Shown here: positions 13,227-38,670 of the stretch, piece after piece | Position numbering within the stretch: the first letter of the stretch is position 1 | Layout of the letters: each line of letters begins with the position of its first letter | Assembly (NCBI GenBank): GCA_963803275.1 | Contig: CAWDLS010000002.1 | Span: 99,905-163,904 of the forward strand | Length of the DNA: 64,000 nt | DNA from: an uncultured Gammaproteobacteria bacterium | Lineage (GTDB): Bacteria > Pseudomonadota > Gammaproteobacteria > UBA9214 | Direction of reading: 5' to 3' | Made by a program: the position numbers and the translations under genes | Notes under the pieces: generated by a model | What the model saw: the letters and a program-made list of their open reading frames with translations, nothing else | The model's database searches: none | What the model was told of the DNA's origin: nothing

Positions 13227-13883
13227 TCAGGGTTCGATCCGGTCACCGGGTAGTCCATGCTGACGCAGGCCGGACATAAGCGCGACGTTAAATGCGATCG
13301 AGATACGTTGTTCACTGGACCTGTTCTCCTCAACGTGATGCTCCAGCCACGCCGGAAATAACAGCAGATTTCCTTCACGCGGAGGGATTTTCACCGTGAA
13401 TGAATTGACGAGATTGGGTTCCTGGAAGGGCAACAGCAGGTAGCGCATGGGTCGCCCGAAGTCTTCGAGTACGAAAACGCCGCTGTCATTGGGAATCCTT
13501 ACATAGTAACAGCCGCTCAGCACCAGGGGATTCGGCATCCCTGCCGGTGACTGATGGGAATGCACGGTATTCGAGTTGCCGAAAACGTTGACATTGGCCC
13601 ACATGGATGTCACTCGCAATCCGCTGGACGCCTGTCCAAATCCGTAGTCCTTGCCGATCTGGCCAAGCTTCCCGGTAATAAACCCGGCAAGCTGCCGGAA
13701 TTCCGCTTTCAAATGCAATTTACCGTGGCTCTGCCATCCACCGCGGTTGGAGTAGTGAACACCGGGGTCGCTTTTCATTTCAGCCATGACTGCAGCGACC
13801 AACTTTTCGTTGGTGGAAACATAATCCGGCATCTCGAAGGTCCAGAGCGGCGTGCCAAATAACACAGACATGTTGTCGGACAT
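13227..13883 (-). CDS. putative 2OG-Fe(II) oxygenase (TIGR02466-like family)
   Basis: MSVLFGTPLWTFEMPDYV...VHSHQSP...EHHVEENRS resembles the conserved 2OG-Fe(II) oxygenase-superfamily hypothetical family; start chosen downstream of the upstream gene's stop (M at 13883; 13871 also possible). Confidence 0.5.
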   Translation of the reverse strand: MSDNMSVLFGTPLWTFEMPDYVSTNEKLVAAVMAEMKSDPGVHYSNRGGWQSHGKLHLKAEFRQLAGFITGKLGQIGKDYGFGQASSGLRVTSMWANVNVFGNSNTVHSHQSPAGMPNPLVLSGCYYVRIPNDSGVFVLEDFGRPMRYLLLPFQEPNLVNSFTVKIPPREGNLLLFPAWLEHHVEENRSSEQRISIAFNVALMSGLRQHGLPGDRIEP

Positions 13884-13980
13884 GGAAAGACCCATTAATA
13901 AGACACGCTGCAGCGCCCTACCCTTACTTGACTCAGAGCGATTCCGGGAAGTCGCGCCTGAAAGAGCCAGGCGAGATGCC

Positions 13981-14763
13981 TCAGCCCAGTCTCTTGTGAC
14001 GGGAGACAGCCAGCAGACCGAGCAGGCCCGAGCCAAACAGCCAGGCCGCAGCAGGGACCGGAACAACAGAGTCGACATGGATGGAGGTGATATCGAAATC
14101 GAAATTGAAACCAGGAAACGGACCGTTGTCCATCGGGACACCCCCGACGCCGTCGTCGCCGGTGAGACAGCTCGCGGTCATGACGCAAACCGGATCGTTA
14201 TGGTAGTTGGTGTCCAATGTCGTGGTGGCTATCGGGGCGGTGCCGATCGGATACTTACCATTGATCATGCCATTACTGGCCGGGGTCGCACCCACGCCGG
14301 AGATGGTGGTGCTGGCGGCAAACGGGCCAGCACCGAAGAAGCCGGCGGCGTCAAGGACGATACCCGTGTTGATATTGTTGTTGCCATTCCAGTCCCACAG
14401 CATCTTGCCCATGACCAGCGTACCGGCACCGCCGGCACCGTCACCAACGGCCAGTATCGAAAAGTCGTGTACACCCAGGGGACCACTGGTTTCGAAATCG
14501 AAGGGATTCATAACCACGCTGCCAGCGCCTGTGCCCGTATCGTACGTGAAGGTACCGGATATCTGGGTACGCAGACCATAACCCCAGGTCGGATCCCCGT
14601 AGTAAGGATAGCTGACGTTATCCAACGGCGTGCCCGAGGCGTTTAGCCAAGTGAACAGGCCGGTCCAGGATGCGTTGATTATGGCGGCGTCGGCCGTGGC
14701 AGCGGTACCTATGCCCAACGAGATGCTCAGCGCCGCAGCGATAGCGGTTTTATTATTCTTCAT
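13981..14763 (-). CDS. PEP-CTERM sorting-domain surface protein (paralog A)
   Basis: Signal peptide MKNNKTAIAAALSISLGIGTAATADA; Gly/Thr/Asn-rich body; C-terminal VPVPAAAWLFGSGLLGLLAVSRHKRLG = PEP-CTERM motif (VPxP + TM helix + basic tail); GGAGGA RBS before ATG 14763. Confidence 0.75.
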   Translation of the reverse strand: MKNNKTAIAAALSISLGIGTAATADAAIINASWTGLFTWLNASGTPLDNVSYPYYGDPTWGYGLRTQISGTFTYDTGTGAGSVVMNPFDFETSGPLGVHDFSILAVGDGAGGAGTLVMGKMLWDWNGNNNINTGIVLDAAGFFGAGPFAASTTISGVGATPASNGMINGKYPIGTAPIATTTLDTNYHNDPVCVMTASCLTGDDGVGGVPMDNGPFPGFNFDFDITSIHVDSVVPVPAAAWLFGSGLLGLLAVSRHKRLG

Positions 14764-14958
14764 GTCCGCTCCTCCCCTGGTATTTATGTGGATTCTCCTT
14801 GCGGTGAATATTTGCCTGTCTGATAAACGACTCTTTTCAGCAGGCCTTGGTAAGCAAGCGTAGTGTGAAAACTGGTAGCTGGCAACCGCACCGGGAGGTG
14901 AAGCGGCGCGGAGCCAGCCTGCCCGACAGGGCAACTCTCCGGTTTCCAGGCCGGCCGT

Positions 14959-16566
14959 CTATCCCGTATACCCGAACTGTTTGATGAAAGGCGCCAGAAT
15001 TGTCTCGATCGAGGCGATCTGGCTGGCATAGTGCTGCCAGCGCCCCCTGGCCCGCGAGTACAGGGGTAATGCGACGTCGATAAAACTCGGTGTGCGTACC
15101 ACACTGGCCCCAGCCTCCATATGGTACGCACGGATATCCGGTGTCCATTCAACGCCGGTAAACTCCAGGATGCGTTTCGACGTGCAGTCGAAGTCATCGA
15201 TAAGATCTTCGTAGCGATATTCAAGAAAGCGCAAGCCACCGAATACCGATTTATAGTGATTCCACAGCCCCATGGTAGCGGAATAGAAACGCGCCGTGTC
15301 CTCGAGGTCCAGAAAGTGAACCATTGCCGAATTAAGCCTGAACGACTGCATAAAGCAGGAGAGACAGACATCGCGTGGATCGCGCAGGGCGACCAGGAAG
15401 CGCGCGGCTGGAAAAAGCCGGTGTATGAATCCGGCCTCGATTATGTTCAGTGGAAGTTTATCGACATAAATCATTCCAGCATTGCTGCCACCCGTGACAC
15501 GGTGCAGTTCGCTGAGATAACGATCCCGGAGACCGGCCAGTTCAGGGTCGGACAATCTGGCAAGCATGGCCGGGTAATTTTCGGAAGCGAGCGTGACATT
15601 CTTCAGTTGCGAGATGAGGTTTGTGACCAGTGGTTCTTCCTGCGTAGTGACGATGTTTGAACGGGTTCTTAGTATCTGTTCAACCAGGGTCGTGCCGGAA
15701 CGTGGAAAACCGACGAAAAATACCAGTCGATCCCCGTCATCATCCACGGCTGGATCCGGTTCCGGTCCTGATAACAGGCTACGGAAACCCTCAATCCGCT
15801 TCAGATAAAACGCCTTCCCGTAAGGCGCATTCCGGGTGACGCTCTGCCAGATCGCATTAGCGCGCCGGAAGGCGTCGAACGCATCATCGTACTCGCCGGA
15901 ACGATCGAGCGCATGACCCAGCTCGCCGAGCAGGCCGGCAACATCGATGGTATTCTCGTGCGCGGCGATGGCCTGTCGCAACCGGGAGATGGATTCTCGC
16001 TCGTTACCGGATTGGCGATCCAGCCGCGCCAGCACGAGGTGGGCGGCCGGGTTGTACTGCTCCAGTCGCAAGGCTTTGGTTGCAGCATGACGGGCATCAT
16101 TATTCCTGCGCAGCATTTCCAGCGTTAATGCCATGTTGCCATAGACATTCGCGTCCGCCTGTCCATGGTCATCCAGCCATTGATAGATCTCCAGCGACTG
16201 CTCGTATTTGCCCCGGTTTGCGTAAAGGTTACCCAGGGTTATGCGGGCCTCGCCTGTGTCAGGCCGGCAGTCGCAATCGGCCGCTGCCGCCAGATACCGT
16301 TCCGCCTGTTCAAGATCCCCGGCGACCAGATACACCTGGCCCAGCGACAACAGCGCCTGATAGGATTTTTGTCGTTGGAGCGACGCGTTCAGGCTGGCCT
16401 GCGCCTCGGGAATCTGACCCTTCCTGGCACAGACCAGCCCATCCAGCAGCCATAGTTGTGGATCATCCGGATTGATGCGGAGCAGTTTCTGTGTGATCCG
16501 CCGTGATTCATCCAGCAGACCTTGCCGGAACAGGCGGCAGGCGTGCTGTTTGGTTTCTTCAGACAC
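14959..16566 (-). CDS. TPR-repeat + sulfotransferase-domain protein
   Basis: TPR repeats N-terminal; C-terminal FFVGFPRSGTTLVEQIL (5'-PSB-like loop) and LRDPRDVCLS (3'-PB-like); start placed at GTG 16566 coupled to upstream stop (GTGTCTGA); ATG 16602 possible. Confidence 0.7.
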   Translation of the reverse strand: MSEETKQHACRLFRQGLLDESRRITQKLLRINPDDPQLWLLDGLVCARKGQIPEAQASLNASLQRQKSYQALLSLGQVYLVAGDLEQAERYLAAAADCDCRPDTGEARITLGNLYANRGKYEQSLEIYQWLDDHGQADANVYGNMALTLEMLRRNNDARHAATKALRLEQYNPAAHLVLARLDRQSGNERESISRLRQAIAAHENTIDVAGLLGELGHALDRSGEYDDAFDAFRRANAIWQSVTRNAPYGKAFYLKRIEGFRSLLSGPEPDPAVDDDGDRLVFFVGFPRSGTTLVEQILRTRSNIVTTQEEPLVTNLISQLKNVTLASENYPAMLARLSDPELAGLRDRYLSELHRVTGGSNAGMIYVDKLPLNIIEAGFIHRLFPAARFLVALRDPRDVCLSCFMQSFRLNSAMVHFLDLEDTARFYSATMGLWNHYKSVFGGLRFLEYRYEDLIDDFDCTSKRILEFTGVEWTPDIRAYHMEAGASVVRTPSFIDVALPLYSRARGRWQHYASQIASIETILAPFIKQFGYTG

Positions 16567-19026
16567 CGAGCGCTTCCAGCAGGGGCCCAAGATGCTCTTC
16601 ATAGCGTCGCCAGCGCTCCACCGAGCTGGTATAGATCGGCTTCCGGACCTGGTCGTAGCTCGGCGTCTTCACGGTGCGCTTGAGTTGGTGATAATTCAGG
16701 CAGCGTTCGTCCCACTCCAGGCCGACGAATTCCAGATCCTGCGGCTCATGTCCTCCTGACTGGCGACCACCTCTTCGTATTGTACGTCCAGGATCGGTAT
16801 TGCCAGCGTTTGCTTCCAGTAGTCCATCAACTGCTCGTACCGGCGGTAGTACAGGCCCAGTGATTCAAGGTCACTGGCATAGGTGTGAAAGGAATTGAAA
16901 TGCTTGAAGTAGATCGACAGGCAGGTATCGACAGGGTTGCGTCGGCAATGCAGTACCCGGGCACCGGGAAACAGCAGATCGATCAGGCCCAGTGCCTCGA
17001 AATTGTGTGGCATCTTGTCGACGATTCTTCTGGCTTCGGGCGCGTAACCCTGGAGGTGATCGAGATAATCGCCTGCTATCCGGTCGAGCGTCTCGGTAGT
17101 GGCATCACCCATGCAGGCAGGATAGGGCCACTTGCTGTTCAGGCGGTTTTGCAGCGTACCCGACAAGTGATACATGTCTTCGAGTTCGCCTGCACCGTGC
17201 ACGTCGGGATGGCTGGCAAGAATCTGCTCGATCAAAGTGGTACCTGAACGCGGCATGCCGACAATGAACACGGGTAATTCGGAGCGATTTGATGCTCTTG
17301 GTCGAGACGCCTGCCTGTCGCGGCTATAAACGCCCCGCAGTGACAAGAACTGATGTTCGGTCTGGCTGACTTTGTAGCCCGGGTGGTCCTCGGTATTCGC
17401 GGCGTGATAATGCTCGAAGGCCTTGTCGTGTTCACCAACGTCGTCGTACAGGTCGCCCATGACAAAATTGCGCTGGATGCGTGCCCATTTCTCCAAACCC
17501 TGCGGGTCAAGCTTCTCTAGCAACCCGAGCGCCTGCTCACGCTGGTCGAGATGTCGCGCCATCACACCGAACGCCAGTGCGACCAGGATATTGACCTTGT
17601 GATCCGACTGCAAGGGCAGCAGAATCGCCTCCGCTTCCTGGAACCGGCCAAGCCGCTCCAGTACCATCACCTGTCCCGCTGAGGCCTCGACATAGTACGG
17701 CTGCAGTGTAACCGCTTCGCCAAAGCGCTCGAAGGCCTGCTCGAACTTGCCCTGTTGCTGCAGGCAGGTTCCGTAATGGTAATGGGCTTCGGCCAAGTCG
17801 GGTTTCAGATCGATGGCACGCCGGTAGGCTGCATCAGCTTCTGGAAAATTCTCGCGGAATCGCTCGACACACAGCAGTGCATTGCCCAGGTTGTTCCAGG
17901 CAGCCGCGTACCCGGGATCATGTCGGGTGGCAGAGCGGAACGTCGTGATGGCCTCGTCAAACCGGCCTTGCGTCATGAGTGCGGTTCCAAGGTTGTTCTC
18001 GAATTCGGCGCAGCCCGGAAGAGTCACCAGCGCAGCCCGGAATCGCTGTTCCGCCTGTACGGGATCGCCATCCTGCTGCGATAGCAGTCCAAGGTTGTTA
18101 TCCGCCAGTGCACAACGCGGATCCAGTTCGATTGCGCGTTCGAATGCGGATTTCGCGCCCGACTTGTCGCCCAGGGCAAGCCGTGCACCGGCCAGCGTAT
18201 TGTATGCATCGGCGTAGTCGCCGCGAATCTCCAGGGCCTGCTCGATCCATTCGAGCGCCTCCTGCGGGCGACCGGCCTCGATCAGCGTCAGTCCAAGAAG
18301 GTTGCTGGCCTCTGGCCGGTCGGGATGTTTCTCGATAGCAGAGCGATAGGTCGCGATCGCTGCATCGAACTCATGCCGCCGGCGCTGGAGATTACCGATC
18401 TCGATCCATGCATCGGTATTGTCCGGATCAAGTTGCACGATGCTTCGAAAACAATCGATAGCAGCCTTGTAGTCGCCCCTCCGCTCCAGTGCCAGCCCCC
18501 TGTTCAGCAGCGGACCGGGTGCTGTGCGATCAAGTTTTATGGCCTTGTCGAACTGCTTCAGAGCTGCATCGACCTCACCGCTGTCCAGCAGCACCAGTCC
18601 GAGATTGTTGATGGTGGTGGCCTGCCGGGGATCAAGGCGTACCGCCTCGCGCGCGTACCGGACCGCATCGGTCAGGCGGCCGAGTTGCCGAAGCACGATG
18701 GTGAGATTGACATAGGGCGATACGTAGGCAGGATTCAACCGGATGGCGCGTGCGTAAGCATCGGCCGCATCCTCCCATGAACGCAGGCTCTGCAACGCGA
18801 CGCCGAGGTTGTACCAGGCGCCGATATGGCCAGGCGCGAGTTCCACCGCCTTGCGACAACAGGCCACAACCTCGTCGAGTGCACCGAGCTGGGCCTGGAC
18901 GCTGGCGCACAGGAACCAGGCCTCGGCCTGGTCAGGCTGTTCCCGGCAATACTGTTCGCACAATGGCAGCGCTTCCCTGGTTCGTCCGGACTGGACCAGC
19001 GCCACGATTTTACGGGCGTTCACCAT
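16559..19026 (-). CDS. long TPR-repeat + sulfotransferase-domain protein (single-base frameshift near 16734 in the given sequence)
   Basis: About 15 TPR repeats then FIVGMPRSGTTLIEQILASHP; track ORF ends ...RRIWNSSAWSGTNAA at 16696, but the -1 frame continues RILEFVGLEWDERCLNYH...TPSYDQVRKPIYTSSVERWRRYEEHLG, matching paralog C-termini, to a TGA at 16559-16561. Confidence 0.65.
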
Positions 19027-19028: not shown

Positions 19029-20450
19029 CTATATTCCCGGGTCCTTCACCAGGACATAGACCTGCCCGGCGATGCTGTCACCATATTCCTCCCTCAGAAC
19101 GATGTCCTGTACCGCAAGCACACGAAGGTCCGATGCCAGGGCCAGCGTGGTGATATAGCCCGGGCTTTGTGCATAGCGACCGGACGGGCACAGGGTATAG
19201 GGCCGGTCATCGTTCGCTCTTTCTGTTGAAAAGCACAGCAGCCCGTGATCGCGCAGTGCGCGGGCACAGGCCGGAAATATCGCCGTCAGGTTGCCGAGAT
19301 AGACGAACACGTCGCCAGCGAGGATCAGGTCATACGCAGTGTCCTGACCGGCAAGAAAGGACGCAATATCATTCTGCGCCAGATGGTCATAGATACCCAG
19401 CGCCCTGGCCTTGTCCAGCATTCGTTCCGAAAGATCAACCCCGGTAATCGAGTTCGCGATATCGGTGAAGTTCTGCGCGCACAGACCGGTGCCGCAGCCC
19501 AGGTCCAGAATATCGAGCGAGGGCGGGTTTTTGCCCAGCGCACTGTGTACCAACCGGTTCATCACCACCGGCGCCGAATACCCAAGCGCACCAACCAGGT
19601 GCTCGTCGAAATTATCCGCATAGCCGTCGAACAGCTCCTGGACGTAGCTGACCGGCGACCGGGGCGGCGCCTCGCGCACGCCGATTACTGACAGAAAATA
19701 GGCAGCATTGGCATGTTTTGGGTCAATCGAGAGGATGTGACGGAAACACTGCTCCGCCTCCGCGATCGCATTGCGCTTGTGCAGGAGAAAGCCAAGGTAA
19801 TAGAGCGCGCTGATGTGCCCGGGCGCACCCGCGAGCGCTTGTTTCAGGCAGGCCTCCGCTTCGGCCGGGCGGTTGTCGAACAATCGCGACATGCCCAGGT
19901 TGGCAAGCGCATCGGGATAATCCGGACGCAGGCGCACGGCCTTCTCGAAACACTCCGTGGCTTCCGCAACCTGGCCCATCTGCCGCAGGGCCGTACCCAG
20001 GTTGTTGAGCGCCTCCGGGTGTTCAGGCGCTATAGCCAGCGCAGTGCGCAGCACGCCCTCGGCTGCGGCAAAGTTTCCAGCGTCGATCAGTGCGCAACCC
20101 AGGTTCACCTCAGCGCCGGTGTAGCCTGGCCTGAGCCGGAGCGCCTCGCGAAACTGGACCTCCGCCTCCGCACGCTTGCCGAGCGTCCGCAACACGCAGC
20201 CAAGATTATTGCGCAGCGTGGCATCGACCGGGCGCAACGCGACCGCACGCTCCAGCGCCGACTCCGCCGCAGGATGGTCTCCGGTCATGCCGCAGACTAT
20301 ACCGAGCAGCCCGGCCACCTCGGCATCGCCGCACTCGCCGACCATTTCGAGAACCCGGCGCGCTTCCGCGAGACGATGCGTCTGAATGAGTTGCTGTGCT
20401 CGCTGCTTCGCGATTGTCCTGGTATCGGAAGTGTCCACTGCCTGAAACAT
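19029..20450 (-). CDS. TPR-repeat + class I SAM-dependent methyltransferase (paralog of 11710-13221)
   Basis: TPR N-domain; C-terminal ILDLGCGTGLCAQNF...ITGVDLS...AGDVFVYLG; start taken at MFQAVDTSD (ATG 20450) since the upstream part of the track ORF lacks homology. Confidence 0.7.
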   Translation of the reverse strand: MFQAVDTSDTRTIAKQRAQQLIQTHRLAEARRVLEMVGECGDAEVAGLLGIVCGMTGDHPAAESALERAVALRPVDATLRNNLGCVLRTLGKRAEAEVQFREALRLRPGYTGAEVNLGCALIDAGNFAAAEGVLRTALAIAPEHPEALNNLGTALRQMGQVAEATECFEKAVRLRPDYPDALANLGMSRLFDNRPAEAEACLKQALAGAPGHISALYYLGFLLHKRNAIAEAEQCFRHILSIDPKHANAAYFLSVIGVREAPPRSPVSYVQELFDGYADNFDEHLVGALGYSAPVVMNRLVHSALGKNPPSLDILDLGCGTGLCAQNFTDIANSITGVDLSERMLDKARALGIYDHLAQNDIASFLAGQDTAYDLILAGDVFVYLGNLTAIFPACARALRDHGLLCFSTERANDDRPYTLCPSGRYAQSPGYITTLALASDLRVLAVQDIVLREEYGDSIAGQVYVLVKDPGI

Positions 20451-30943: not shown

Positions 30944-32506
30944 TCACACCGTTTGATCGACAAGGTCCGCAAGCGCTCCCAGATGACGCTGGTAATTCCG
31001 CCATCGGCCCACCGATTTATCGTGGACTGGACGGCGCACATCATCATAGCTAGGCGTGCTCACGACCCGCACATTTTCGTGAAAGTGCAGGCACTGTTCG
31101 TTCCATGCGAGACCGCAGAACTCAACCAGCTTGCGGGCGCCGTGCTCGATTTCGCCAACCAGATCCTCGTAACGCACCTCGTACAGGGGTACACGGATGA
31201 TGGTTTTCCAATGCGCCATCAGCGCCTGGTACTGGCGGTAGTAGTCAGCCAGGGCATCCGTGTCATTTGTATAGGGATGATTCGCCGTCATCTGCTGGAA
31301 CCAGATCGAGAGGCAGGTGTCACGCGGGTCGCGTACACAGTGAACGACCCGGCAACCCGGAAACAGCAGATCGATATATCCCAGCGCCAGGAAGTTGTGT
31401 GGCATTTTGTCGATGATCCGCATCGCAGCGGGCGCGAGCCGCGAAACCGTGTCGATGTAGCCCTGCGAAGCAAGGTCGAGAGCAGACACAGTTAGCCGCC
31501 CGAGACCCTCCGGCGTGGACACAGGACCTCCCAAAGCATGCACGATCCGGGCGATATCGTTCCGCTCTCCAGCACCGTACACGTCCGGGTGACTGGCCAG
31601 TATCTGTTCAACCAGGGTCGTACCCGAACGCGGCATGCCGACGACGAAAACTGGGAGCACGGTTTTGATGCTACTGCGGGAAAGTTGCGGATGACGTGCG
31701 GATGAAAAGGCCGCGGTAATGCCGTAAAAGGTATTCCGGGTCTGCTCCGGATCGTAGTGATAATTCAGCAACCCGTTACCTGCCCTGTAATGTTCAAAGG
31801 CCCGGTCATAATCGCACAGGTTGTCATAGAGCTTGCCGAGCGCGAAGTGGATATCGCTTCGAAGCGATTCTGCCATCGGGGTGGCAACGAGTTCTTCGAG
31901 TAGCGTGGCCGCCGCGGATTCATCTCCGGTGTGCTTCGCCAGCACTGCATTGGCAAGCGCGACTACCGGAGCGACGGGCCGCTTGGCAAGCGGTCTTTCC
32001 AAAATGTCCATGGCCTGCCGATGGTCGCCTTCGTACTCGTAACTGAGCGCCAGCATGGCGCAGGCGTCCGGGTGTTCCGGCTGCCGCGACAGGATGACGC
32101 GTAACTGGGTACGCGCCTCCAGGTATCGCCCGGCCGCACTCAACAGACGGCCAAGGCAGACGCGGGCTGGAGTTCGTTCCGGGTCAAGCGCAACGGCTTC
32201 ACGGTACACCGTTTCGGCACTTCCGGACTGTGATAGCGATTCGAAACGATGTCCGGCTTGAATCAGTGCGTGGTAGAGGTGTCCGGCGACAGTCGGGTTG
32301 TTGGGCACGAGTGCGCGCGCCTTGCGCAGTGGCTCCACGGACATGATCGGCCGCCCGAGCGCGAGCAGGGCGGACCCGAGCAGTAACCAGCAGTGCGGAT
32401 TACCGGGATCCTCGACAGTCTGATGCTCAGCGGCACGCCAGGCCTCTTCGTTGCGACATGCTCGCAACAGATCCTGTATCCGCTCTAATGGGTCTGCCAC
32501 TATCAT
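30944..32506 (-). CDS. TPR-repeat + sulfotransferase-domain protein
   Basis: FVVGMPRSGTTLVEQILASHPDVYGAGE ... VHCVRDPRDTCLS; ATG 32506 overlaps upstream TGA (TGATG junction). Confidence 0.7.
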   Translation of the reverse strand: MIVADPLERIQDLLRACRNEEAWRAAEHQTVEDPGNPHCWLLLGSALLALGRPIMSVEPLRKARALVPNNPTVAGHLYHALIQAGHRFESLSQSGSAETVYREAVALDPERTPARVCLGRLLSAAGRYLEARTQLRVILSRQPEHPDACAMLALSYEYEGDHRQAMDILERPLAKRPVAPVVALANAVLAKHTGDESAAATLLEELVATPMAESLRSDIHFALGKLYDNLCDYDRAFEHYRAGNGLLNYHYDPEQTRNTFYGITAAFSSARHPQLSRSSIKTVLPVFVVGMPRSGTTLVEQILASHPDVYGAGERNDIARIVHALGGPVSTPEGLGRLTVSALDLASQGYIDTVSRLAPAAMRIIDKMPHNFLALGYIDLLFPGCRVVHCVRDPRDTCLSIWFQQMTANHPYTNDTDALADYYRQYQALMAHWKTIIRVPLYEVRYEDLVGEIEHGARKLVEFCGLAWNEQCLHFHENVRVVSTPSYDDVRRPVHDKSVGRWRNYQRHLGALADLVDQTV

Positions 32507-34680
32507 CAACCCGGGTTCTTGCACCACAGCCGCCATGCCTGACGATAGCGGCTTTCAAGGCGCATGCAAAACCCCTCCCCATCCATGAGCGGCGACGTTC
32601 GCATGCGATTGCGTAATGACTCGTGCAATGTCGCGAGGAGCGAACCGTCGTTCGCAAGGTCAATCGCGCCAGCCTCGTATTCGCCGAGGCTGGCTGCTGC
32701 AAACTCCGACAGTCCAACCTGGTGTAACAGACTCAGCCCGACCCGGCCGGCATGGGCCGGGCCAGCAAGCGTCATGACAGGCACACCCATCCAGAGCGCT
32801 TCGCAGGTCGTGGTGGTGCCATTGTATGGAAACGTGTCGAGTGCGATGTCCATGCGCTGATAACAGGCAAGATGCTCTGCGGTGGACGCGATGTACGGAA
32901 GCAGCACGAGACGGGTAGCCTCTACCCCATGGTCGCCGAATCGTACGGCTATCCGCTCACGCACCCTGACATCGGCAAGCGCCGCTCCCTTGAGGAGCAG
33001 GCGGCTACCGGGTACCGATCGCAGGATCGTGGACCAGCTAGTGACGACCGAATCGTTCACCTTGGCAAGATTATTGAGCGAACCGAAGGTCACGAAGCCA
33101 TTGTGTAAGTGGGGTGGTGGACCGCAATCCGGTGTTTTCGTAGGTGGCGAATAACAAAGGAATCCGTCGGGAATTCGCAGCAGTGTTTCGGTCGCGCGGT
33201 CATCCGCTTCAACGGCAGGATCGGCCCATTCGTCAGTCAGGCGATAGTCCATGGCCGGGAGCCCAGTTGTATCCGGGTAACCGAGCCAGCTCATCTGCAC
33301 GGGGGCGGGGCGGTACATGAATGCACCCAGACGATTGCCACTGGTGTGCCCGGAAAGATCCACCAGTATATCAATCCCGTCCGCAGCGATTAGTGTGGAG
33401 AGATCGCGATCGCTCAATGTAAAAACATCACGCCAGAGGTCCGCCGCTTCGCGCAGCGTGCTGGTCGTGGCATCGTGTCGTTCGGGTCTAAGATTTGAGT
33501 AGCAGTAGACAAGGTGATGCGCCTGATCACGGTGGGTGAGCACCGGTTCGATGAAATGCGCGACGGAATGCAGCCTGAAGTCGCATGATACGTAGCCTAT
33601 TCGCAACACACGTTCCGGGTCGGGCTCATTCGCGTGCCGTATCCTTTCGTCCGGCACGGTGCCATAACTCTCACCCCAGACTCGATGCGCATCGTAGAGT
33701 TCCTGTGGTGAAATCTTGTCGGAGTAATGCAGGTCCATTAGCAGGTGTTGCTGCATTTCCGTGTTTGTGGGGTCGAGTTCGACTGCTCTCCGGTCGTGCT
33801 GCAACATCGCTCCGATCCGGCCTTCGTCAAGGAAGAGACCGGACAGGCTGGCATGCGCGCGTGCATTGCGTTCATCCGCATCGAGAAGCAACTGAAGATC
33901 GCTGGCCGCATCGGTCAGTCGACCCGTGTGGCGGAGTATCATCGCGCGTCCGAAACGCGCCTCGACATGACCGGGGTCAGCGGCAAGACATGCCTCGAAG
34001 CCGCGCAGTGCCTCTTCATGACGGCCCAGCTCGGACAAGATGAACCCCAGTTGATAGCGGAGATCTGCCTGCGAGGGCAGCTGCGCGAGGCCCTGTTCAG
34101 TAACCGCCAATCCCTGGGTGAGTTCATCCCGGTCGATCAGCGACCTGGACCAATCCAGATAAGTACCGGCCATCTTCGGGTGAGCGGCAACCAGTTGTCG
34201 GTAGCAGGACTCCGCCGCGCCATATTGTCCCAGCCGTTGGTATGCCGACGCGATGTTATTGATGGCCTGGAGCTGGCTCGGGGCGATAGCGAGAGTCTCC
34301 TGGTAGAGGCTTATCGCCAGCTCGGGTCTGCCTTGTTGAAGAACACTGTCGGCCAGGGCGGTAATGATCTCTGCATTGCCGGGCTGGAGTGACCTTGCGC
34401 GGCGCAGGATTTCTTCGGCCTCGGCTGCCCGTTCCTGACGCAGCAGCGCAATACCGAGATTGTAAAGAATTACATATTGATCAGGCGCGAGTGTCAGTGC
34501 TTTGCGACAGCATTTCTCGGCCTCGCCAAAAGCGCCGAGTGCACCATGGACGGCGCCAACCAGGAACCAGAGCTCGGGATCCCCGGGAATTTTATTACAT
34601 AACGCAGAACCCAGCGCAAGCGCCTCGGAAAATCGGCCCAGGCGGCACAACTCCCTAAGTTCGGTCTTCCTATCCGGCAT
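32506..34680 (-). CDS. TPR-repeat + GT41 (O-GlcNAc-transferase-like) glycosyltransferase
   Basis: About 10 TPRs followed by RIGYVSCDFRLHSVAHFIEPVL ... VDLSGHTSGNRLGAFMYRPAPVQMSWLGYPDTTG ... FGSLNNLAKV ... LLLKG, the signature of bacterial OGT/SPINDLY-type GT41 enzymes. Confidence 0.7.
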   Translation of the reverse strand: MPDRKTELRELCRLGRFSEALALGSALCNKIPGDPELWFLVGAVHGALGAFGEAEKCCRKALTLAPDQYVILYNLGIALLRQERAAEAEEILRRARSLQPGNAEIITALADSVLQQGRPELAISLYQETLAIAPSQLQAINNIASAYQRLGQYGAAESCYRQLVAAHPKMAGTYLDWSRSLIDRDELTQGLAVTEQGLAQLPSQADLRYQLGFILSELGRHEEALRGFEACLAADPGHVEARFGRAMILRHTGRLTDAASDLQLLLDADERNARAHASLSGLFLDEGRIGAMLQHDRRAVELDPTNTEMQQHLLMDLHYSDKISPQELYDAHRVWGESYGTVPDERIRHANEPDPERVLRIGYVSCDFRLHSVAHFIEPVLTHRDQAHHLVYCYSNLRPERHDATTSTLREAADLWRDVFTLSDRDLSTLIAADGIDILVDLSGHTSGNRLGAFMYRPAPVQMSWLGYPDTTGLPAMDYRLTDEWADPAVEADDRATETLLRIPDGFLCYSPPTKTPDCGPPPHLHNGFVTFGSLNNLAKVNDSVVTSWSTILRSVPGSRLLLKGAALADVRVRERIAVRFGDHGVEATRLVLLPYIASTAEHLACYQRMDIALDTFPYNGTTTTCEALWMGVPVMTLAGPAHAGRVGLSLLHQVGLSEFAAASLGEYEAGAIDLANDGSLLATLHESLRNRMRTSPLMDGEGFCMRLESRYRQAWRLWCKNPG

Positions 34681-35416
34681 AACCGTGCCGGGCCAACCAG
34701 TTACTGGTCAGTGCCGCAAGCCGTGCCTGCTCGACGGGCTTGAGTAGCGTCCGCCACTCACCGCCCACGCTATCGCTCACATGTCCGCCCTGAAATCCGG
34801 TAACTTCGTCGTAATGGCGGACGCTGCCATCGGCGTTGCGCTGCACGGGACCCGGTATTCGCCCCCCGCCGTCCGATTCAGTGTCGCCGAGTTCCGCAAC
34901 ATAGCTGCGCACCTTCTCCCGCGCATATTCGCTTGCTATCAGCGCAACCTGTTCGGGCGACACTGGAAGATCGATGAAAGACGCGATGCGTGTGATCGTT
35001 TCCACCGGCCGCTGCATGATGTTTTCGTATCGCACGTCGAGCATATCGAACGGGGACTCGACGAGATAGTAATCCACGAGCGCCAGGGACTCGCTGAAAC
35101 CTTCAATCGCTGCTTCGAAATTGCAGCGGGTGAAGCGCATGTATGAGAGCAGCGCATCACGCGCATCGCGCAAGTTGCACAGTATCTTGAGGCCGGGAAG
35201 TGTACCTTCGTAGCGGGCATGCACCTTGATACAAATTAGGTCGGTCGAGGCCACTCCATGGCGGATGGCGAGCCGGAACGACGGAATCGGGTCTGGAGGA
35301 ATATGCACAGGCCAAGGTGTATGGCCCGACAGGCGGATCAACCGGCGCGCAACGTTGTAGGTCCACATGGAGCCCGTGCGTGGCATGCCTGCGACGATCA
35401 CGATGGGTTTAATCAT
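34670..35416 (-). CDS. sulfotransferase-domain protein (no TPR)
   Basis: MIKPIVIVAGMPRTGSMWTYNV ... CNLRDARDALLS; start ATG 35416 lies 8 nt after upstream stop. Confidence 0.6.
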   Translation of the reverse strand: MIKPIVIVAGMPRTGSMWTYNVARRLIRLSGHTPWPVHIPPDPIPSFRLAIRHGVASTDLICIKVHARYEGTLPGLKILCNLRDARDALLSYMRFTRCNFEAAIEGFSESLALVDYYLVESPFDMLDVRYENIMQRPVETITRIASFIDLPVSPEQVALIASEYAREKVRSYVAELGDTESDGGGRIPGPVQRNADGSVRHYDEVTGFQGGHVSDSVGGEWRTLLKPVEQARLAALTSNWLARHGYAG

Positions 35417-35423
35417 ATCAGGA

Positions 35424-37523
35424 TCAACCGGATTCTGTCGGGACAGGTGTGATCGCCAGGGCATCGAACAACGGCTGCAGATATTTCTCGTAATTTCTCC
35501 ACCGCTGCACAGAGTGCCTGTAGATCGGCTGGCGGACCTGGGCGTAGCTCGCCGTCTTAGCTTTCCGGCCGGACTCGTAAAAACGCAGACAGCGCTCGTC
35601 CCAGGGCAGGCTGCAGTGCTCGAGCAGCGCGCGGCTGCCCGCCTCGGGATCGTCGACCAGGGACTCGTACCGTGTCTCGAACATCGGCACCCCCAGCGTA
35701 TCGCGAAAATGGGTCATCATCCTCTGGTACTGGCGATAATGCTGGCCCAGGTGTGTCAGATCATAGGCATAGTTGTGATAGCTCGCGAAGTCCTGGAAAT
35801 AGCAGGACAGGCAGACATCGGCGGGGTCACGCAGGCAGTGGATAATGGGCGCATCCGGGAACAGGCGATGTAGCAAGCCGAGAAACTGGAAGTTGTGTGG
35901 CATCTTGTCGGTCACGAAGCGGGCACCCGGGGCCAGAGTGCGCAACTCATCAAGGTAGGCCCTGGCCATGTCCTCGCAGTCGGCCTGCGTCAGATGAGGC
36001 AGGTAATCCGGATAGCCGAGGGTGCATCCGGCACAGGCGCGTGCTGTGCCGGCGATACGCGCGATGAAGGGCAATTCGTCACCCGCATGGACCTCGGGGT
36101 GACTGGCCAGGATCTGCTCGACCAGCGTGGTACCCGAGCGCGGCATACCAACGATGAAGATCGGCGTCACATCTGAGGCGGGTACAGCGGACGGCAGACG
36201 GGCGAAGACCTCCGGCGACAGCACCGCGATCAGCTTGTCGACATGGCGTTCATCGTCCGCCGCGTTGTACCGGTAGCGCTTCAGCCGGTTACCCGCCTCG
36301 AAATGCCGGAAGGCCTCATCGTAGCGCTGCTGCCGGTCGTAGAGTTCGCCGACCCGGAAGTGCAGGTGGCACATTACAATTTCGTTGGACATACCGGACC
36401 GAAGACGGAACTCGATTCGCTCGATCGCCTTCTCGCACTCACCGAAATGGCGGCTCAGCCGCGCATAGGTATCGAGTGCACGCAGCCCGGCCGCGCCGGA
36501 TTCGATTACCGGTTCGAGCAGCACGTGCGCAGCCTCGAAGTCACCCAGCTTTTCCAGTATGCCCGCCCGCGCGCCCACGAGATCCAGGCCATGGTCGCCG
36601 GGCAGTACCTGCTGGTAGGCCTCAAGTGCTCCCTGTAGCAATCCAGAGCGTTCGAGGGCAAGCGCTTTGTTGTACTGTGCCTCGGGATATCCCGGATCTA
36701 GGTCAAGGCTGTCACAGAAACATTTCAGGGCCTCGTGGGTATTACCGAGATCGAGCTGTGTGAGGCCAAGATCCATCAAGGGCCCCAGCTCTCCAGGCGC
36801 CGCCTCTACGGCCTGCGCATAGGTCTGCGCCGCGGCGGCAAGCTGGCCGTATTCGTGGTAGATGGCGCCGATGTTGCGCAGCGCCTCAAGATCATTGGGG
36901 ACGCGTTGCAGCACCTGCAACCAGACCGCGAGCGCCTGCTCGTCCTGATCGCTCGCGTGCAGGGCAGTCGCAAGACCGGCGAGATAGCGCGGCTCGCCGG
37001 GCGTCATTTGGCTCGCGTGTCCATAATGACGCGCGGCCTCGGGCCAGCGGCCCAGCGCATGAAAGGCCGCGGCAAGGTTGTAGTGGACAGCGGGATCATC
37101 CGGGTTCAGCGCAACGGCCTGCTCGTAGCAGGCAATGGCCTCCCCGTGCCGATACAGCGCCGAAAGCGCCGCACCCAAGTTGCTCAGGTCTCTGGCCTCC
37201 CCCCCCGACAGGGACACGGCCTTGCGAAAACTCGTCTCGGCCTCCGCAGCGCGGCCAAGTTGCAACTGGAAATGCCCCAGGTTGCGGTAACCGGCAACGA
37301 CCGAAGGGGCCAGCATCGTCGTCTGCCGGGCGCAGCGTGCGGCGTTTTCCGGATCGTCCAGCGTTCCGTATACCACACCGAGCATGTGCCACATGTGAGG
37401 ATCGCGCGGACACTGCCGGCACAGCTGCTCATAATGCTCCACGGCCTCACTCAGTCGACCCTGCTGAAAATGTTCACGGGCATGACATTCGAGTTCGGCG
37501 ATCTGTGACGAGGACAATTCCAT
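35424..37523 (-). CDS. TPR-repeat + sulfotransferase-domain protein
   Basis: 699 aa; about 12 TPRs then IFIVGMPRSGTTLVEQILASHPEVHAGDE ... IHCLRDPADVCLS. Confidence 0.7.
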   Translation of the reverse strand: MELSSSQIAELECHAREHFQQGRLSEAVEHYEQLCRQCPRDPHMWHMLGVVYGTLDDPENAARCARQTTMLAPSVVAGYRNLGHFQLQLGRAAEAETSFRKAVSLSGGEARDLSNLGAALSALYRHGEAIACYEQAVALNPDDPAVHYNLAAAFHALGRWPEAARHYGHASQMTPGEPRYLAGLATALHASDQDEQALAVWLQVLQRVPNDLEALRNIGAIYHEYGQLAAAAQTYAQAVEAAPGELGPLMDLGLTQLDLGNTHEALKCFCDSLDLDPGYPEAQYNKALALERSGLLQGALEAYQQVLPGDHGLDLVGARAGILEKLGDFEAAHVLLEPVIESGAAGLRALDTYARLSRHFGECEKAIERIEFRLRSGMSNEIVMCHLHFRVGELYDRQQRYDEAFRHFEAGNRLKRYRYNAADDERHVDKLIAVLSPEVFARLPSAVPASDVTPIFIVGMPRSGTTLVEQILASHPEVHAGDELPFIARIAGTARACAGCTLGYPDYLPHLTQADCEDMARAYLDELRTLAPGARFVTDKMPHNFQFLGLLHRLFPDAPIIHCLRDPADVCLSCYFQDFASYHNYAYDLTHLGQHYRQYQRMMTHFRDTLGVPMFETRYESLVDDPEAGSRALLEHCSLPWDERCLRFYESGRKAKTASYAQVRQPIYRHSVQRWRNYEKYLQPLFDALAITPVPTESG

Positions 37524-37656: not shown

Positions 37657-37681
37657 AAGGGGCGCCGCAGCGCCCCTTTCC
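37657..37681 (-). terminator. rho-independent terminator for the PEP-CTERM gene (GAAAGGGGCGCTGCGGCGCCCCTTTC + T-run on minus strand)
   Basis: Perfect 10-bp GC stem with 4-nt loop, followed on the minus strand by TTTTTT (37650-37656). Confidence 0.6.
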
Positions 37682-37737
37682 CTGTTTGCCTCAGAGCGAT
37701 TACAGGGGAATCGCCTGAAAGAGCCTGGTGAAATGCC

Positions 37738-38523
37738 TCAGCTCATTTTCTTGCGACGGGCAACACCCACCAGACCGAGCAGGCCGGAGCCGAACAGCCA
37801 GACTGCGGCCGGGATCGGGACAGCAGGTGCGGTTACGTTTGTGACATGGATGGAGGTAATGTCGAAATTGGCACTGAAGCCCGGGAATGGACCGTTGTCC
37901 ATCGGATCACCACCAATACCATCGTCACCGATGATGAAAGCGCCACCGTTATGGAAATCAGTGTCAAACGATGTCGTAGCCATCGGGGCTGGACCGATCG
38001 GGAACTTGCCCTTGTTGATGCCATTACTGGCCGGGGTCGCACCCACACCGGAAATGGTGTCGCTGGTACTGACCGCACCAGCACCGAAGAAACCGGCGGC
38101 GTCGAGAATGATACCCACGTTAATGTTGGTGCTCGTGGCCCAGTCGAACAGCATCTTGCCTGCCACCAGCGTGCCGCTACCACCCATCCCGTCGCCGATA
38201 GCCTGCATCACAATGTCGTGGGCGCTCGCCTTACCCTTGTTGAAGAACTCAAACGGGTTCACGACTGCGGAACCAGCACCCGTGCTGGTATTGAAGCTGA
38301 AGGTACCGCTGATCTGAGTGCGCAGACCGTAACCCCAGGTGGCATCGCCATAGTACGGATAGCTGGTGTTCTGCAGTTGAACACCGGCCGGATCCAGAAT
38401 GGTGAACAGGCCGGACCAGGACGCATCAATGACTGCTGCACTGGCGCTGGTCGGCATTGTAGCCACACTGATCCCCAGAGAAACGGCAACAGCAGATGCT
38501 AGAGCAGTTTTCTTCAAGTTCAT
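37738..38523 (-). CDS. PEP-CTERM sorting-domain surface protein (paralog B)
   Basis: Signal peptide MNLKKTALASAVAVSLGISVATMPTSASA; body about 60% identical to 13981-14763; C-terminal VPIPAAVWLFGSGLLGLVGVARRKKMS; GGAG RBS 7 nt before ATG 38523. Confidence 0.75.
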   Translation of the reverse strand: MNLKKTALASAVAVSLGISVATMPTSASAAVIDASWSGLFTILDPAGVQLQNTSYPYYGDATWGYGLRTQISGTFSFNTSTGAGSAVVNPFEFFNKGKASAHDIVMQAIGDGMGGSGTLVAGKMLFDWATSTNINVGIILDAAGFFGAGAVSTSDTISGVGATPASNGINKGKFPIGPAPMATTSFDTDFHNGGAFIIGDDGIGGDPMDNGPFPGFSANFDITSIHVTNVTAPAVPIPAAVWLFGSGLLGLVGVARRKKMS

Positions 38524-38670
38524 GATTGACTCCAAATAATTTGTTAAATATCGATATTAACATTCAATTTTATTGTTAACCGTTAGTTGTTGTCAGTACC
38601 TAAATAGCTCCGCGAGCACTGACAGTGAACCGAACCGGCATGACAATAGCTGCACAGGCACCATTATTGT

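Follow-up and report, generated by a model that had tools for sequence, protein, structure and literature searches.

A conserved gene module suggests a candidate system for tailoring exosortase-tagged surface proteins in uncultured Gammaproteobacteria

What do the tailoring enzymes that crowd around two genes for exosortase-tagged surface proteins in an uncultured gammaproteobacterium act on? We analyzed a 64,000-nucleotide stretch of its DNA (the window), in which a Pfam search of the open reading frames placed an enzyme island at 11.7–38.5 kb, with about eighteen enzymes of cytoplasmic, protein-modifying types representing at least five chemistries. Most of them are bracketed by two cargo genes, paralog 1 (13981–14763, minus strand) and paralog 2 (37738–38523, minus strand). 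An earlier note on this DNA had read the island as candidate machinery acting on PEP-CTERM proteins or on the associated exopolysaccharide (EPS). Comparison with related loci showed the region to be one instance of a conserved module, consisting of a cargo family, a FadL/PorV-like outer-membrane protein and tailoring enzymes.

The cargo proteins form an uncharacterised 8-stranded beta-barrel family. Paralog 1 combines a signal peptide, the 'YPYYGD' barrel domain and the tail VPVPAAAWLFGSGLLGLLAVSRHKR (family HMM E = 4e-96); paralog 2 heads the minus-strand row on the right, and both share a signal peptide and a C-terminal VP[VI]PAAxWLFGSGLLGL..R[RH]K tail. The two had been described as an approximately 60%-identical PEP-CTERM pair; the identity holds (59%), but the tail is the VPxPA variant and reaches only 13.6 against the Pfam PEP-CTERM cut-off of 20.7. 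Paralog 2 passes the NCBIfam VPLPA-CTERM model TIGR03370 (31.9 vs cut-off 25.35), and paralog 1 is sub-threshold (19.8 bits). As the note had said, Gly, Thr, Ser and Asn abound in the mature parts; Asp is frequent too, and Lys/Arg residues are very few. In locus L174, whose cargo is divergent, another sequence takes the place of the conserved YPYYGD motif, although a TPR-sulfotransferase is present there; this leaves no basis for naming a particular sulfation site. A third, previously unlisted copy of the cargo domain makes up the N-terminal ~260 aa of a large surface protein (40696–43362, plus strand; family HMM E = 8e-72), which is 888 aa long in a sister assembly. Its reading frame is intact in L001:5163-7829 and broken in the window, where clustered indels relative to the sister assembly at 38–43 kb frameshift it. 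Counterparts of 630–1160 aa were found in every related locus.

Upstream of paralog 2 (38671–38906, minus strand) we located an enhancer-like box, GTCGTGATTATTTACAA (38906–38890), a degenerate second copy of it (38776–38761) and a sigma-54 -24/-12 site, TGGCCCGCTAGTTGCA (38686–38671). Proteobacterial PEP-CTERM genes carry a motif 1 ending in TTTACA and a sigma-54 motif 2 (Haft et al. 2006, PMC1569441), and the predicted sites here, in a likewise long upstream region, are laid out as in this published PrsR-box plus sigma-54 regulon. In L083, L087, L088, L090 and L004, the lead cargo gene is preceded by this architecture as well. The locus further shares with the XrtA-EpsH exosortase system and its PrsK/PrsR/PrsT proteins the tripartite C-terminal tail with a signal peptide, and adjoining XrtA-type EPS export genes (PMC1569441); it differs in its VPLPA-type tail, and no exosortase, PrsK or PrsR gene was found in the 64-kb window. 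Neither sulfotransferases nor enzymes dedicated to modifying cargo are reported in that study, whose one remark in this direction is that covalent modification may be guided by TPR proteins.

Among the island enzymes, Pfam recovered all four TPR-sulfotransferase fusions and both free sulfotransferases named in the earlier note. The fusions, each with a Sulfotransfer_3 domain (PF13469) and all on the minus strand, are TPR-ST_a (14959–16602; 108 bits), TPR-ST_b (16696–19026; 142 bits), TPR-ST_c (30944–32536; 148 bits) and TPR-ST_d (35424–37523; 158 bits), the last being the first enzyme gene downstream of paralog 2. The PRSGTT loop and the conserved Glu are intact in all four; TPR-ST_b measures 776 aa in the window against 822 aa in the sister assembly L091, and the alignment shows that the window ORF lacks the C-terminal part. 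The stand-alone enzymes are ST_e (27664–28530, plus strand; PF13469, 81 bits) and ST_f (34670–35464, minus strand; Sulfotransfer_1, 44 bits). Among solved structures, TPR-ST_d comes closest to the tyrosylprotein sulfotransferases TPST1/2 (E = 1e-13), with the GMPRSGTTL motif and the GxE glutamate aligned; a heparan sulfotransferase scores E = 0.8. The PAPS-binding half also fits the NCBIfam model of the carbohydrate sulfotransferase NoeE nearly as well (E = 3e-11), so the TPST similarity does not fix the acceptor. As for PAPS-cycle genes, cysQ is present in the window, and a PAPS synthase gene in locus L175.

Two glycosyltransferases accompany them. A TPR-GT41 fusion (32506–34680, minus strand; PF13844, 183 bits) confirmed the earlier assignment, and its catalytic half is closest to Arabidopsis SPINDLY (372 bits), followed by bacterial and human OGT (~150 bits). 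The proposed TPR-GT9 enzyme (26187–27689, plus strand) was matched by Pfam, but weakly and partially (Glyco_transf_9, 25.2 bits vs cut-off 22); this GT-B-like protein has no informative solved relative. Both TPR-fused class I SAM methyltransferases also appeared in Pfam: TPR-MT_a (11710–13221, plus strand; TPR families and Methyltransf_11/12/25), with generic small SAM methyltransferases as its closest solved structures, and TPR-MT_b (19029–20675, minus strand; TPRs and Methyltransf_11/25/23), the former falling just before position 13227, where the island had been said to begin.

The SET-like protein of the earlier note (28870–29931, plus strand) yielded a confident AlphaFold model (AF2 pLDDT 91.6), and this matched only SET-domain protein methyltransferases: the top 29 Foldseek PDB matches were all LSMT, SETD3 or pTAC14 SET proteins (best E = 8.6e-6, probability 1.0). 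N160-H161 and Y188 are invariant across its family, and the conserved Asn-His and Tyr positions are a further likeness to LSMT/SETD3. It differs from these enzymes in having no Pfam or NCBIfam match at the sequence level and in facing a Lys-poor cargo, and the TM-score is only ~0.4 because the domain arrangement differs.

We counted five 2-oxoglutarate (2OG)/PhyH oxygenases rather than the suggested "about six". An Oxy_5 enzyme of 222 aa (13227–13895, minus strand; start taken from the L091 gene call) matches PF13759 at 68 bits and TIGR02466 at 93 bits (cut-off 62.5). The PhyH-type oxygenase at 20471–21526 (minus strand; 43 bits) has the H-x-D...H triad and is overlapped by a TPR reading frame (21258–21884; TPR_2, 71 bits); in L091 the counterparts are called as genes of 197 and 259 aa, 8 nt apart, and the pair at 20471–21884 is either two adjacent genes or one fusion split by a frameshift. 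Two Oxy_3/4 enzymes are 31% identical: prolyl-hydroxylase-like copy a (22482–23165, plus strand; PF13661 63 bits, PF13640 59 bits; H147-x-D149...H205) and copy b (24247–24945, minus strand; Pfam match including an Ofd1-like region; H153-x-D155...H210), whose closest solved relatives are the ribosomal-protein prolyl hydroxylase OGFOD1 (E = 8e-11) and then the bacterial prolyl hydroxylase 4iw3 (1.6e-3). A second PhyH-type copy (29955–30857, plus strand; 36.5 bits) weakly matches PHYHD1. The H-x-D...H motif is intact in four of the five.

Three further proteins belong to no recognized family. A 237-aa protein (23533–24246, minus strand), with no Pfam or NCBIfam match and relatives in L003, L087 and L088, is a paralog (28% identity over 179 aa, E = 2e-14) of a 351-aa protein (25126–26181, plus strand) that is co-conserved with the module; relatives of the latter lie beside Oxy_3/4 genes in L087 (64% identical) and L088 (55%), and its profile comparison with the sulfotransferase domain was negative. 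A predicted 310-aa lipoprotein (10283–11215, minus strand), with a lipobox-like ...LTGC N-terminus, a strongly hydrophobic core and no Pfam or NCBIfam match, is a possible peripheral member: tblastn found relatives in L012, L027, L094, L100 and L176, some beside ST/GT41 genes.

Tight or overlapping stop/start junctions occur as the note had described, including a TGATG overlap, and paralog 2 leads a same-strand row of TPR-ST, ST, TPR-GT41 and TPR-ST genes joined in this way. Signal peptides were absent from all island enzymes in an N-terminal hydrophobic-signal check, which found such signals only on the cargo, the outer-membrane protein and one lipoprotein. Sugar-nucleotide, flippase and polymerase genes were likewise not detected in the island, in agreement with the note; galE lies outside (50374–51357).

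To the right, the 888-aa protein adjoins an outer-membrane protein of the FadL/Toluene_X family (39252–40631, plus strand; PF03349, 70 bits) with a sub-threshold match to the NCBIfam PorV/PorQ family (E = 1.4e-10), and a FadL-like protein stands beside the cargo in L003, L004, L083, L087–L090, L175 and L176. Next come XrtA-type EPS export genes (43396–50360, all on the plus strand): Poly_export (43396–44109), an outer-membrane protein (44334–45611), a chain-length determinant (46008–47768), a tyrosine autokinase (48068–48865) and an ATPase (48879–50360). Among NCBIfam models, TIGR03007 exceeds its cut-off (290.8 vs 278.85), whereas TIGR03027, TIGR03016, TIGR03018 and TIGR03015 are best matches below theirs. 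The module adjoins such genes in five of ten family-anchored loci with gene calls (L083, L087, L089, L175 and the window's own contig), so a shared EPS function is possible; in L085 and L088 it has none within 10 kb.

The search of other genomes that the note had proposed gave a clearly positive answer. Ten independent cargo-anchored loci (40–82% identity; L003, L004, L083, L085, L087–L090, L175, L176) were compared with control loci carrying the same C-terminal tail on other cargo. Sulfotransferase genes, one to five and usually directly adjacent, lie within 10 kb in 9/10 cargo-anchored loci, the tenth having a TPR-GT41 and a methyltransferase gene, but in only 6/78 controls (Fisher p = 8e-8, a value that overstates independence, since the loci were picked from long contigs and are related by phylogeny). 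The enzyme–cargo pairing is not due to chance. The link is to one cargo family and does not extend to exosortase substrates in general: around the genes of dozens of other proteins bearing the same C-terminal tail, enzymes of this kind are missing. A second small cargo family is probably linked as well: this unrelated tail-bearing family is flanked by ST/GT41 genes in L027, L049, L095 and L098. Anchoring on the SET-fold protein (60% identity) led to L174, with two cargo paralogs, two TPR-GT41 genes and one TPR-ST gene. The co-occurrence spans several orders of Gammaproteobacteria, in uncultured, mostly sulfur- or methane-cycling hosts, with enzyme content differing from locus to locus and gene orders rearranged. 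Anchoring on the ST domain (44–54% identity) instead gave 80 metagenome loci, many on short contigs, only 2–3 of which contain the cargo family (L097, L104, weakly L117); the clade of these sulfotransferases extends far beyond the cargo-linked system.

From gene content, homology, co-conservation with the cargo family, intact catalytic motifs, the enzymes' lack of signal peptides, gene order, promoter sites and nearby PAPS-cycle genes, we consider it somewhat probable (roughly 55%) that the enzymes modify members of this family while these are still cytoplasmic, ahead of Sec export and processing by an exosortase. Of the two targets named in the earlier note, the protein branch is favored over EPS by the nearest relatives TPST, SPINDLY/OGT, OGFOD1/PPHD and LSMT/SETD3, all of which act on proteins; the target narrows, however, from all exosortase substrates to one family and probably a second small one. 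A PrsR-type enhancer-binding protein with sigma-54 would switch on the lead cargo gene, for which the sites are present and conserved. The TPR domains could then capture newly made, unfolded cargo in the cytoplasm, and fused or neighboring catalytic domains may use cytoplasmic cofactors to decorate either the polypeptide or glycans attached to it: PAPS for sulfate, a nucleotide sugar for O-linked sugar, 2-oxoglutarate with Fe(II) for hydroxyl groups and SAM for methyl groups. By analogy, modified cargo would pass through Sec, lose its tail to an exosortase and come to lie in or on the EPS matrix, possibly aided by the FadL/PorV-like protein. The proposed SET enzyme fits poorly with a mature cargo so poor in Lys/Arg.

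The enzymes might instead sulfate and methylate the exopolysaccharide of the neighboring XrtA-type system and glycosylate it with side chains, the cargo proteins being no more than co-regulated matrix components. The export genes directly right of the module and beside those of L083, L087, L089 and L175 point this way, as do the nearby PAPS-cycle genes, the NoeE match and the GT9-like domain, whose family is best known for LPS heptosyltransferases. We regard this as unlikely, given an island that lacks initiating or polymerizing GT2/GT4 enzymes as well as flippase, polymerase and sugar-nucleotide genes, modules that stand apart from EPS genes (L085, L088), and an association that follows the cargo family rather than the sorting tail or EPS genes; to our knowledge, moreover, characterised GT41, SET and OGFOD1-like enzymes have protein substrates only. 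Other proteins could also be the targets, whether cytoplasmic ones, the enzymes themselves or just the 888-aa or FadL-like protein, with adjacency reflecting a single biofilm regulon. OGT/SPY-type enzymes are typically multi-substrate, homologues of TPR-ST, TPR-GT41 and the SET-fold protein are widespread without the cargo family, and a set of five oxygenases plus eight transferases looks large when there are only three substrates. Against this, which we judge improbable, enzyme and cargo genes stay immediately adjacent across rearranged gene orders, the ST/GT41-flanked second family indicates cargo-specific pairing, and the 888-aa protein, having a cargo domain, belongs within the main hypothesis of cargo modification.

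A very improbable reading gives the arrangement no functional meaning, with genes hitch-hiking in a variable genomic island or some enzymes decaying as paralogs. Strain-level variation and frameshifts are indeed concentrated at 38–43 kb, several gene models differ between assemblies, and enzyme content varies among loci; however, co-occurrence persists over 40–82% protein identity and several orders, catalytic motifs are intact, no mobile-element genes or tRNAs were found, and the GC content of the island is close to that of the flanks.

Cargo modification would have precedents for its parts. TPST1/2 and RaxST carry out PAPS-dependent luminal or cytoplasmic sulfation of a secreted polypeptide (protein tyrosine sulfation), and RaxST of Xanthomonas is encoded beside its substrate RaxX. 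The island enzymes share their Sulfotransfer_3 fold, PRSGTT 5'-PSB loop and catalytic Glu; they differ in the long TPR arrays fused to four of six copies, in their combination with glycosyltransferase, methyltransferase and oxygenase genes, and in a putative substrate that is a folded beta-barrel of ~200 aa, not a short peptide. SPINDLY/OGT likewise join N-terminal TPRs to a GT41 domain, but modify many nucleocytoplasmic proteins, whereas the island GT41 sits in an operon-like row behind a secreted-protein gene. HMW1C (GT41) and the GT9-like autotransporter heptosyltransferases TibC/Aah glycosylate an adhesin in the cytoplasm before Sec export and are encoded beside it; the window GT41 is only remotely like HMW1C/NGT (22–26 bits), and each of those systems relies on a single enzyme with a single chemistry. 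PorV of the T9SS is a FadL-family cargo shuttle, and the barrel at 39252–40631, of the FadL/TodX type, also adjoins proteins with C-terminal sorting signals. All PorV models score far below their cut-offs for it and no T9SS is present; by analogy, it possibly handles the cargo. Taken together, the cluster suggests a new system that would sulfate, glycosylate, hydroxylate and methylate biofilm surface proteins.

ORF listing with GC3 screening, followed by Pfam scans, recovered the enzyme inventory of the earlier note almost item by item. The island encodes four TPR-Sulfotransfer_3 fusions (14959-16602, 16696-19026, 30944-32536 and 35424-37523, all −), two stand-alone sulfotransferases (27664-28530, +; 34670-35464, −), two TPR proteins with a class I methyltransferase domain (11710-13221, +; 19029-20675, −), a TPR-GT41 protein (32506-34680, −), a TPR protein with a weak GT9-like domain (26187-27689, +), five 2OG oxygenases (13227-13895, 20471-21526, 22482-23165, 24247-24945 and 29955-30857), and three genes with no Pfam family match (23533-24246, 25126-26181 and 28870-29931). 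The two flanking proteins, hereafter the cargo (paralog 1, 13981-14763; paralog 2, 37738-38523; both −), are 59% identical, in line with the 60% first estimated, and the overlapping junctions reported earlier are present as well: genes are densely packed, several overlap or abut, and one pair shares a TGATG overlap. We found no convincing intrinsic terminators between cargo and enzyme genes, the GC content of the island is similar to that of its flanks, and Rfam and tRNA searches returned zero tRNA genes and zero Rfam elements in the window. At 20471-21884 (−), a PhyH ORF and a TPR ORF overlap by approximately 270 nt in different frames; they are separate genes 8 nt apart in a sister ENA metagenome assembly of this region, and the pair may represent a TPR-PhyH fusion split by an indel.

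The left flank carries housekeeping genes (purD, purH, dusB, prmA, accC, accB, aroQ). To the right lie a FadL/Toluene_X-family outer-membrane protein (39252-40631, +), a large ORF (40696-43362, +), and an XrtA-type EPS export set (Poly_export, an outer-membrane protein, a chain-length determinant, a tyrosine autokinase and an ATPase), followed by galE and vanZ. The chain-length determinant scored above the TIGR03007 cut-off (290.8 vs 278.85); TIGR03027, TIGR03018, TIGR03015 and TIGR03016 were the best matches of the other export genes, all below their cut-offs. No exosortase (EpsH/Xrt) gene was found among the ORFs scanned within the 64-kb window. Farther right, beyond the EPS genes, are cysQ (PAP phosphatase; 51867-52592, −), 13 kb from the island, and a type II secretion operon (57215-61420, −; gspL, gspK, gspJ, gspH and neighbours). 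A bifunctional ATP-sulfurylase/APS-kinase gene closes one related locus (L175, 20485 to end); this gene and the window's cysQ would both fit a high PAPS turnover, though both may also be housekeeping genes.

Both cargo paralogs begin with a Sec signal peptide, a hydrophobic N-terminus closing in an AxA-like site, and end in VPVPAAAWLFGSGLLGLLAVSRHKRLG and VPIPAAVWLFGSGLLGLVGVARRKKMS, respectively, a tripartite signal of short Pro-containing motif, hydrophobic helix and C-terminal basic cluster. The tail, VP[VI]PAAxWLFGSGLLGL...R[RH]K in the two paralogs, is invariant over 68 homologues; with TIGR03370 (NCBIfam VPLPA-CTERM), paralog 2 scored above the cut-off of 25.35 (31.9) and paralog 1 below it (19.8), and the score with Pfam PF07589 (PEP-CTERM) was sub-threshold (13.6 vs 20.7). 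The mature proteins, predicted to be eight-stranded beta-barrels, are rich in Gly, Thr, Ser and Asn, as the earlier reading had stated, and are acidic, with Lys and Arg very scarce. The family has no Pfam domain, comprises at least 2428 homologues at 90% clustering (150 clusters at 50% clustering, E ≤ 1e-30), and contains conserved segments including QNTSYPYYGDATWGYG and the strongly conserved NTSYPYYGDPTWGYGLRT. The conserved NTSYPYYGDPTWGYG motif was considered as a specific site of tyrosine sulfation; this idea was dropped because the motif is replaced in L174, a related locus, although a TPR-sulfotransferase gene adjoins.

A core-domain profile revealed a third copy of the cargo domain in the N-terminal 260 aa of an 888-aa protein (40696-43362), an arrangement common to every related locus. 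Its C-terminus carries a different, Cys-containing signal, ...SSGGCTVAGSTVDPAKGGAWWLVAGFLTWMGWKRRNR, possibly a Cys-type sorting signal not described before; it matched zero NCBIfam sorting-domain models. The same [ST]GGC, W-rich helix and basic tail end the large protein in four related loci (L003, L083, L087, L089), and another tail type is present in three more (L004, L088, L090). The FadL-like protein shows weak PorV/PorQ-family similarity, and almost every related locus has it beside the cargo genes; by analogy with PorV of the T9SS, it could provide the outer-membrane step for the cargo.

Comparison of the window with the sister contig (L001, L091) showed 99.94% identity over 3981-24762, and 49 gap openings within 27738-48524, clustered at 38-43 kb. 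Mismatches and gaps at 38000-43400 affect the promoter region of the cargo as well as the genes for the FadL-like and the large protein, with 99.9% identity elsewhere, and the large ORF is frameshifted in the window and intact in L001 (5163-7829, −). Either this stretch is hypervariable between strains or its consensus mixes several strains, and the sequence accuracy of the window at 38-43 kb is uncertain.

We then investigated whether enzymes and cargo are paired in other genomes, detecting genes by tblastn (E ≤ 1e-5) with domains taken from the window as queries. Ten cargo-anchored loci with 40-82% cargo identity were obtained from independent metagenomes or MAGs (L003 Thiogranum, L004 Thiotrichaceae, L090 Methylococcales, L083, L085, L087, L088, L089, L175 and L176). 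One to five sulfotransferase genes lie within 10 kb of the cargo in nine of the ten, usually directly adjacent; their other genes, in combinations that differ from locus to locus, are TPR-methyltransferases, PhyH and Oxy_3/4 oxygenases, relatives of the 25126-26181 protein, the large family protein and the FadL-like gene. The tenth holds a TPR-GT41 and a methyltransferase. A genome-contig search with the full-length cargo alignment was dominated by tail-only matches, its full-length relatives being L003 and L004 only, and the other 78 loci, with the same tail on a different protein body, served as controls. A sulfotransferase was present in 6/78 controls compared with 9/10 cargo loci (Fisher p = 8e-8, an optimistic value because the loci are related by phylogeny and were picked on long contigs). 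Control loci were shorter (median 13 kb vs 21 kb); of the 32 controls that measured 15 kb or more, only two contained a sulfotransferase. Clustering of all tail-bearing ORFs revealed enzyme enrichment only in the cargo family and a second small family, with essentially zero enrichment in some dozen other tail families. The co-occurrence of such enzymes with PEP-CTERM genes proposed earlier holds for the cargo family and probably for the second one, and is essentially absent from the other tail families.

The second family (approximately 240-290 aa; L027, a Sulfuricaulis MAG, L049, L095 and L098) is unrelated to the cargo family in its body and has the same tail, VPVPAAVWLFGSGL. Its members carry a GSYYGxD...NGDG motif, are repeated in tandem, with as many as five or six copies in a row, and adjoin TPR-sulfotransferase and GT41 genes; the aromatic residue of their aromatic-Gly-Asp motifs varies among Y, F and W.

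Anchoring on the enzymes provided the reciprocal view. A 60% homologue of the 28870-29931 protein (L174) has as neighbours a pair of divergent cargo paralogs, one TPR-sulfotransferase gene and two TPR-GT41 genes, and a 34% homologue (L173) has an unrelated context. With the sulfotransferase domain as anchor, 80 metagenome loci (44-54% identity) contained cargo only in L097, L104 and, weakly, L117; a tail-bearing protein was present in five of the 80, four of these among the twelve closest matches. The sulfotransferase clade is therefore much wider than the cargo system, and is not dedicated to the cargo family. The island's closest relative, with 82% cargo identity, has part of the enzyme set replaced: at 16249-17933 of L083/L084 it encodes a Sulfotransfer_4 protein and a radical-SAM/SPASM enzyme instead. 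The enzyme complement is therefore modular between strains.

Homology searches were informative for several of these enzymes. Five of the six sulfotransferase genes matched PF13469 at 81-158 bits; the sixth (34670-35464) scored only 31.9, its best match being Sulfotransfer_1 at 44 bits. The solved structures nearest to the sulfotransferase domain of 35424-37523 are TPST1/2 (E = 1e-13, vs E = 0.8 for a heparan sulfotransferase), and its GMPRSGTTL and G-D-E motifs align with GMPRSGTTL and G-E-E of TPST. The PRSGTT (PAPS 5'-PSB) loop and catalytic Glu are kept in all four TPR fusions, and not clearly in the two free sulfotransferases. Since the NCBIfam model of NoeE, a carbohydrate sulfotransferase, also matches the PAPS-binding half (E = 3e-11), the acceptor, protein or carbohydrate, is not settled. 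The TPR-GT41 protein has an N-terminal TPR array and matched PF13844 at 183.5 bits (cut-off 25); over its whole catalytic half, Arabidopsis SPINDLY scored 372 bits, compared with approximately 150 for OGTs and 22-26 for HMW1C/NGT. The GT9-like domain matched Glyco_transf_9 at 25.2 bits (cut-off 22) over model positions 149-208 of 247 only and had zero solved relatives; searches of solved structures gave no substrate information for this, the methyltransferase or the PhyH domains.

The H-x-D...H iron triad is kept in four of the five 2OG oxygenases. The Oxy_3/4 enzymes scored 54-68 bits (cut-off 27), with triads H147/D149/H205 and H153/D155/H210, and the solved structures nearest to 24247-24945 are OGFOD1 and a bacterial prolyl hydroxylase. 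For 28870-29931, SET sequence profiles gave zero Pfam or NCBIfam matches even at E ≤ 10 and there were zero PDB sequence matches; the predicted structure (pLDDT 91.6), searched with Foldseek, gave LSMT, SETD3 or pTAC14 for all of the top 29 matches (E down to 8.6e-6, probability 1.0). The fold search alone thus upheld the earlier SET-like call, these being SET-domain protein methyltransferases, and N160, H161 and Y188, invariant over 38 homologues, are probably equivalent to catalytic SET residues. The paralogous proteins 23533-24246 (−) and 25126-26181 (+) were considered as divergent sulfotransferases from an 'HTxFCRSTL' motif, and this was rejected at an hhalign probability of 0.5%; they share conserved FxFHTxFCxSTL, EP and IKPT motifs, have relatives in L087, L088 and L003, and within the module are conserved together with the Oxy_3/4 oxygenases.

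Upstream of paralog 2, a sigma-54 -24/-12 site (38686-38671) is preceded by the box GTCGTGATTATTTACAA (38906-38890) and a degenerate second copy (38776-38761). A GTCG-N8-TTTACA(A/G) box and -24/-12 site also precede the lead cargo gene in five related loci (L083, L087, L088, L090, L004), and no such architecture was found upstream of paralog 1. Haft et al. (PMC1569441) describe for proteobacterial PEP-CTERM genes a 17-nt motif 1 ending in TTTACA, sometimes repeated, followed by a sigma-54 motif 2; at the level of this description, paralog 2 has the same architecture. A sigma-54-dependent response regulator gene lies nearby in L176.

The best-supported reading, to which we assign a probability of roughly 0.55, is that the island enzymes act on cargo-family precursors in the cytoplasm. 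N-terminal hydrophobic signals were found on the cargo, the FadL-like protein and one lipoprotein, and on none of the island enzymes; PAPS, SAM, 2-oxoglutarate and nucleotide sugars are cytoplasmic cofactors. The TPR arrays would serve as substrate-binding modules for the precursors, and modification would precede Sec export and exosortase processing; each chemical step, the acceptor residues, the part played by the FadL/PorV-like protein and the exosortase involvement are what we infer, whereas gene content, homology, co-conservation, promoter architecture and predicted topology come directly from the analysis. The main rival, that these enzymes tailor EPS, fits the adjacency to EPS export genes, yet it accommodates poorly both the GT41, SET and OGFOD1-like families and the module copies without nearby EPS genes (L085, L088), and we consider it unlikely. 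Action on the cargo precursors could extend to a cytoplasmic 'finishing line' for one exosortase cargo class, in which TPR-tethered TPST-, SPINDLY-, SET- and prolyl-hydroxylase-like enzymes would add sulfate, sugar, hydroxyl and methyl groups to the small beta-barrel protein, so that it is exported as a matrix glycoprotein; we propose this fuller scheme tentatively, and doubt that every part of it is correct.

Full-text literature searches returned no paper joining PEP-CTERM/exosortase cargo with sulfotransferases or tyrosine sulfation, in agreement with the earlier impression that no such combined system has been described. In the 2006 description of the system (PMC1569441), the only remark of this kind is that TPR proteins may guide covalent modification. 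Substrate-adjacent clusters modifying secreted bacterial proteins are already known; what is unusual here is the number and mix of chemistries and the exosortase link. HMW1C-HMW1, the TibC/Aah heptosyltransferases and RaxST-RaxX are cases of secreted proteins modified in the cytoplasm by enzymes encoded beside them, and may by analogy provide a precedent for the island.

To our knowledge, the function and modification of exosortase cargo have been an open question since 2006, and we know of essentially one case of bacterial protein sulfation, RaxST. The TPST-, SPINDLY-, SET- and prolyl-hydroxylase-like enzymes beside one defined cargo family offer concrete candidate enzyme-substrate pairs, and the module comes with a defined regulatory setting, PrsR with sigma-54, and with an outer-membrane protein as candidate partner. 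Confirmation would establish the heavily modified matrix glycoproteins of sulfur- and methane-cycling Gammaproteobacteria as a new bacterial class. TPR-fused sulfotransferases and GT41 enzymes, which form very large families still uncharacterised, would also gain functions. The complete finishing scheme, if true, would give bacteria a counterpart to sulfated proteoglycans or to the hydroxyproline-rich and sulfated peptides of plants. Going beyond RaxST, it would also be the first protein-sulfation system to be widespread in bacteria, and signals of sulfated glycoconjugates that have been reported in environmental biofilms might stem from it.
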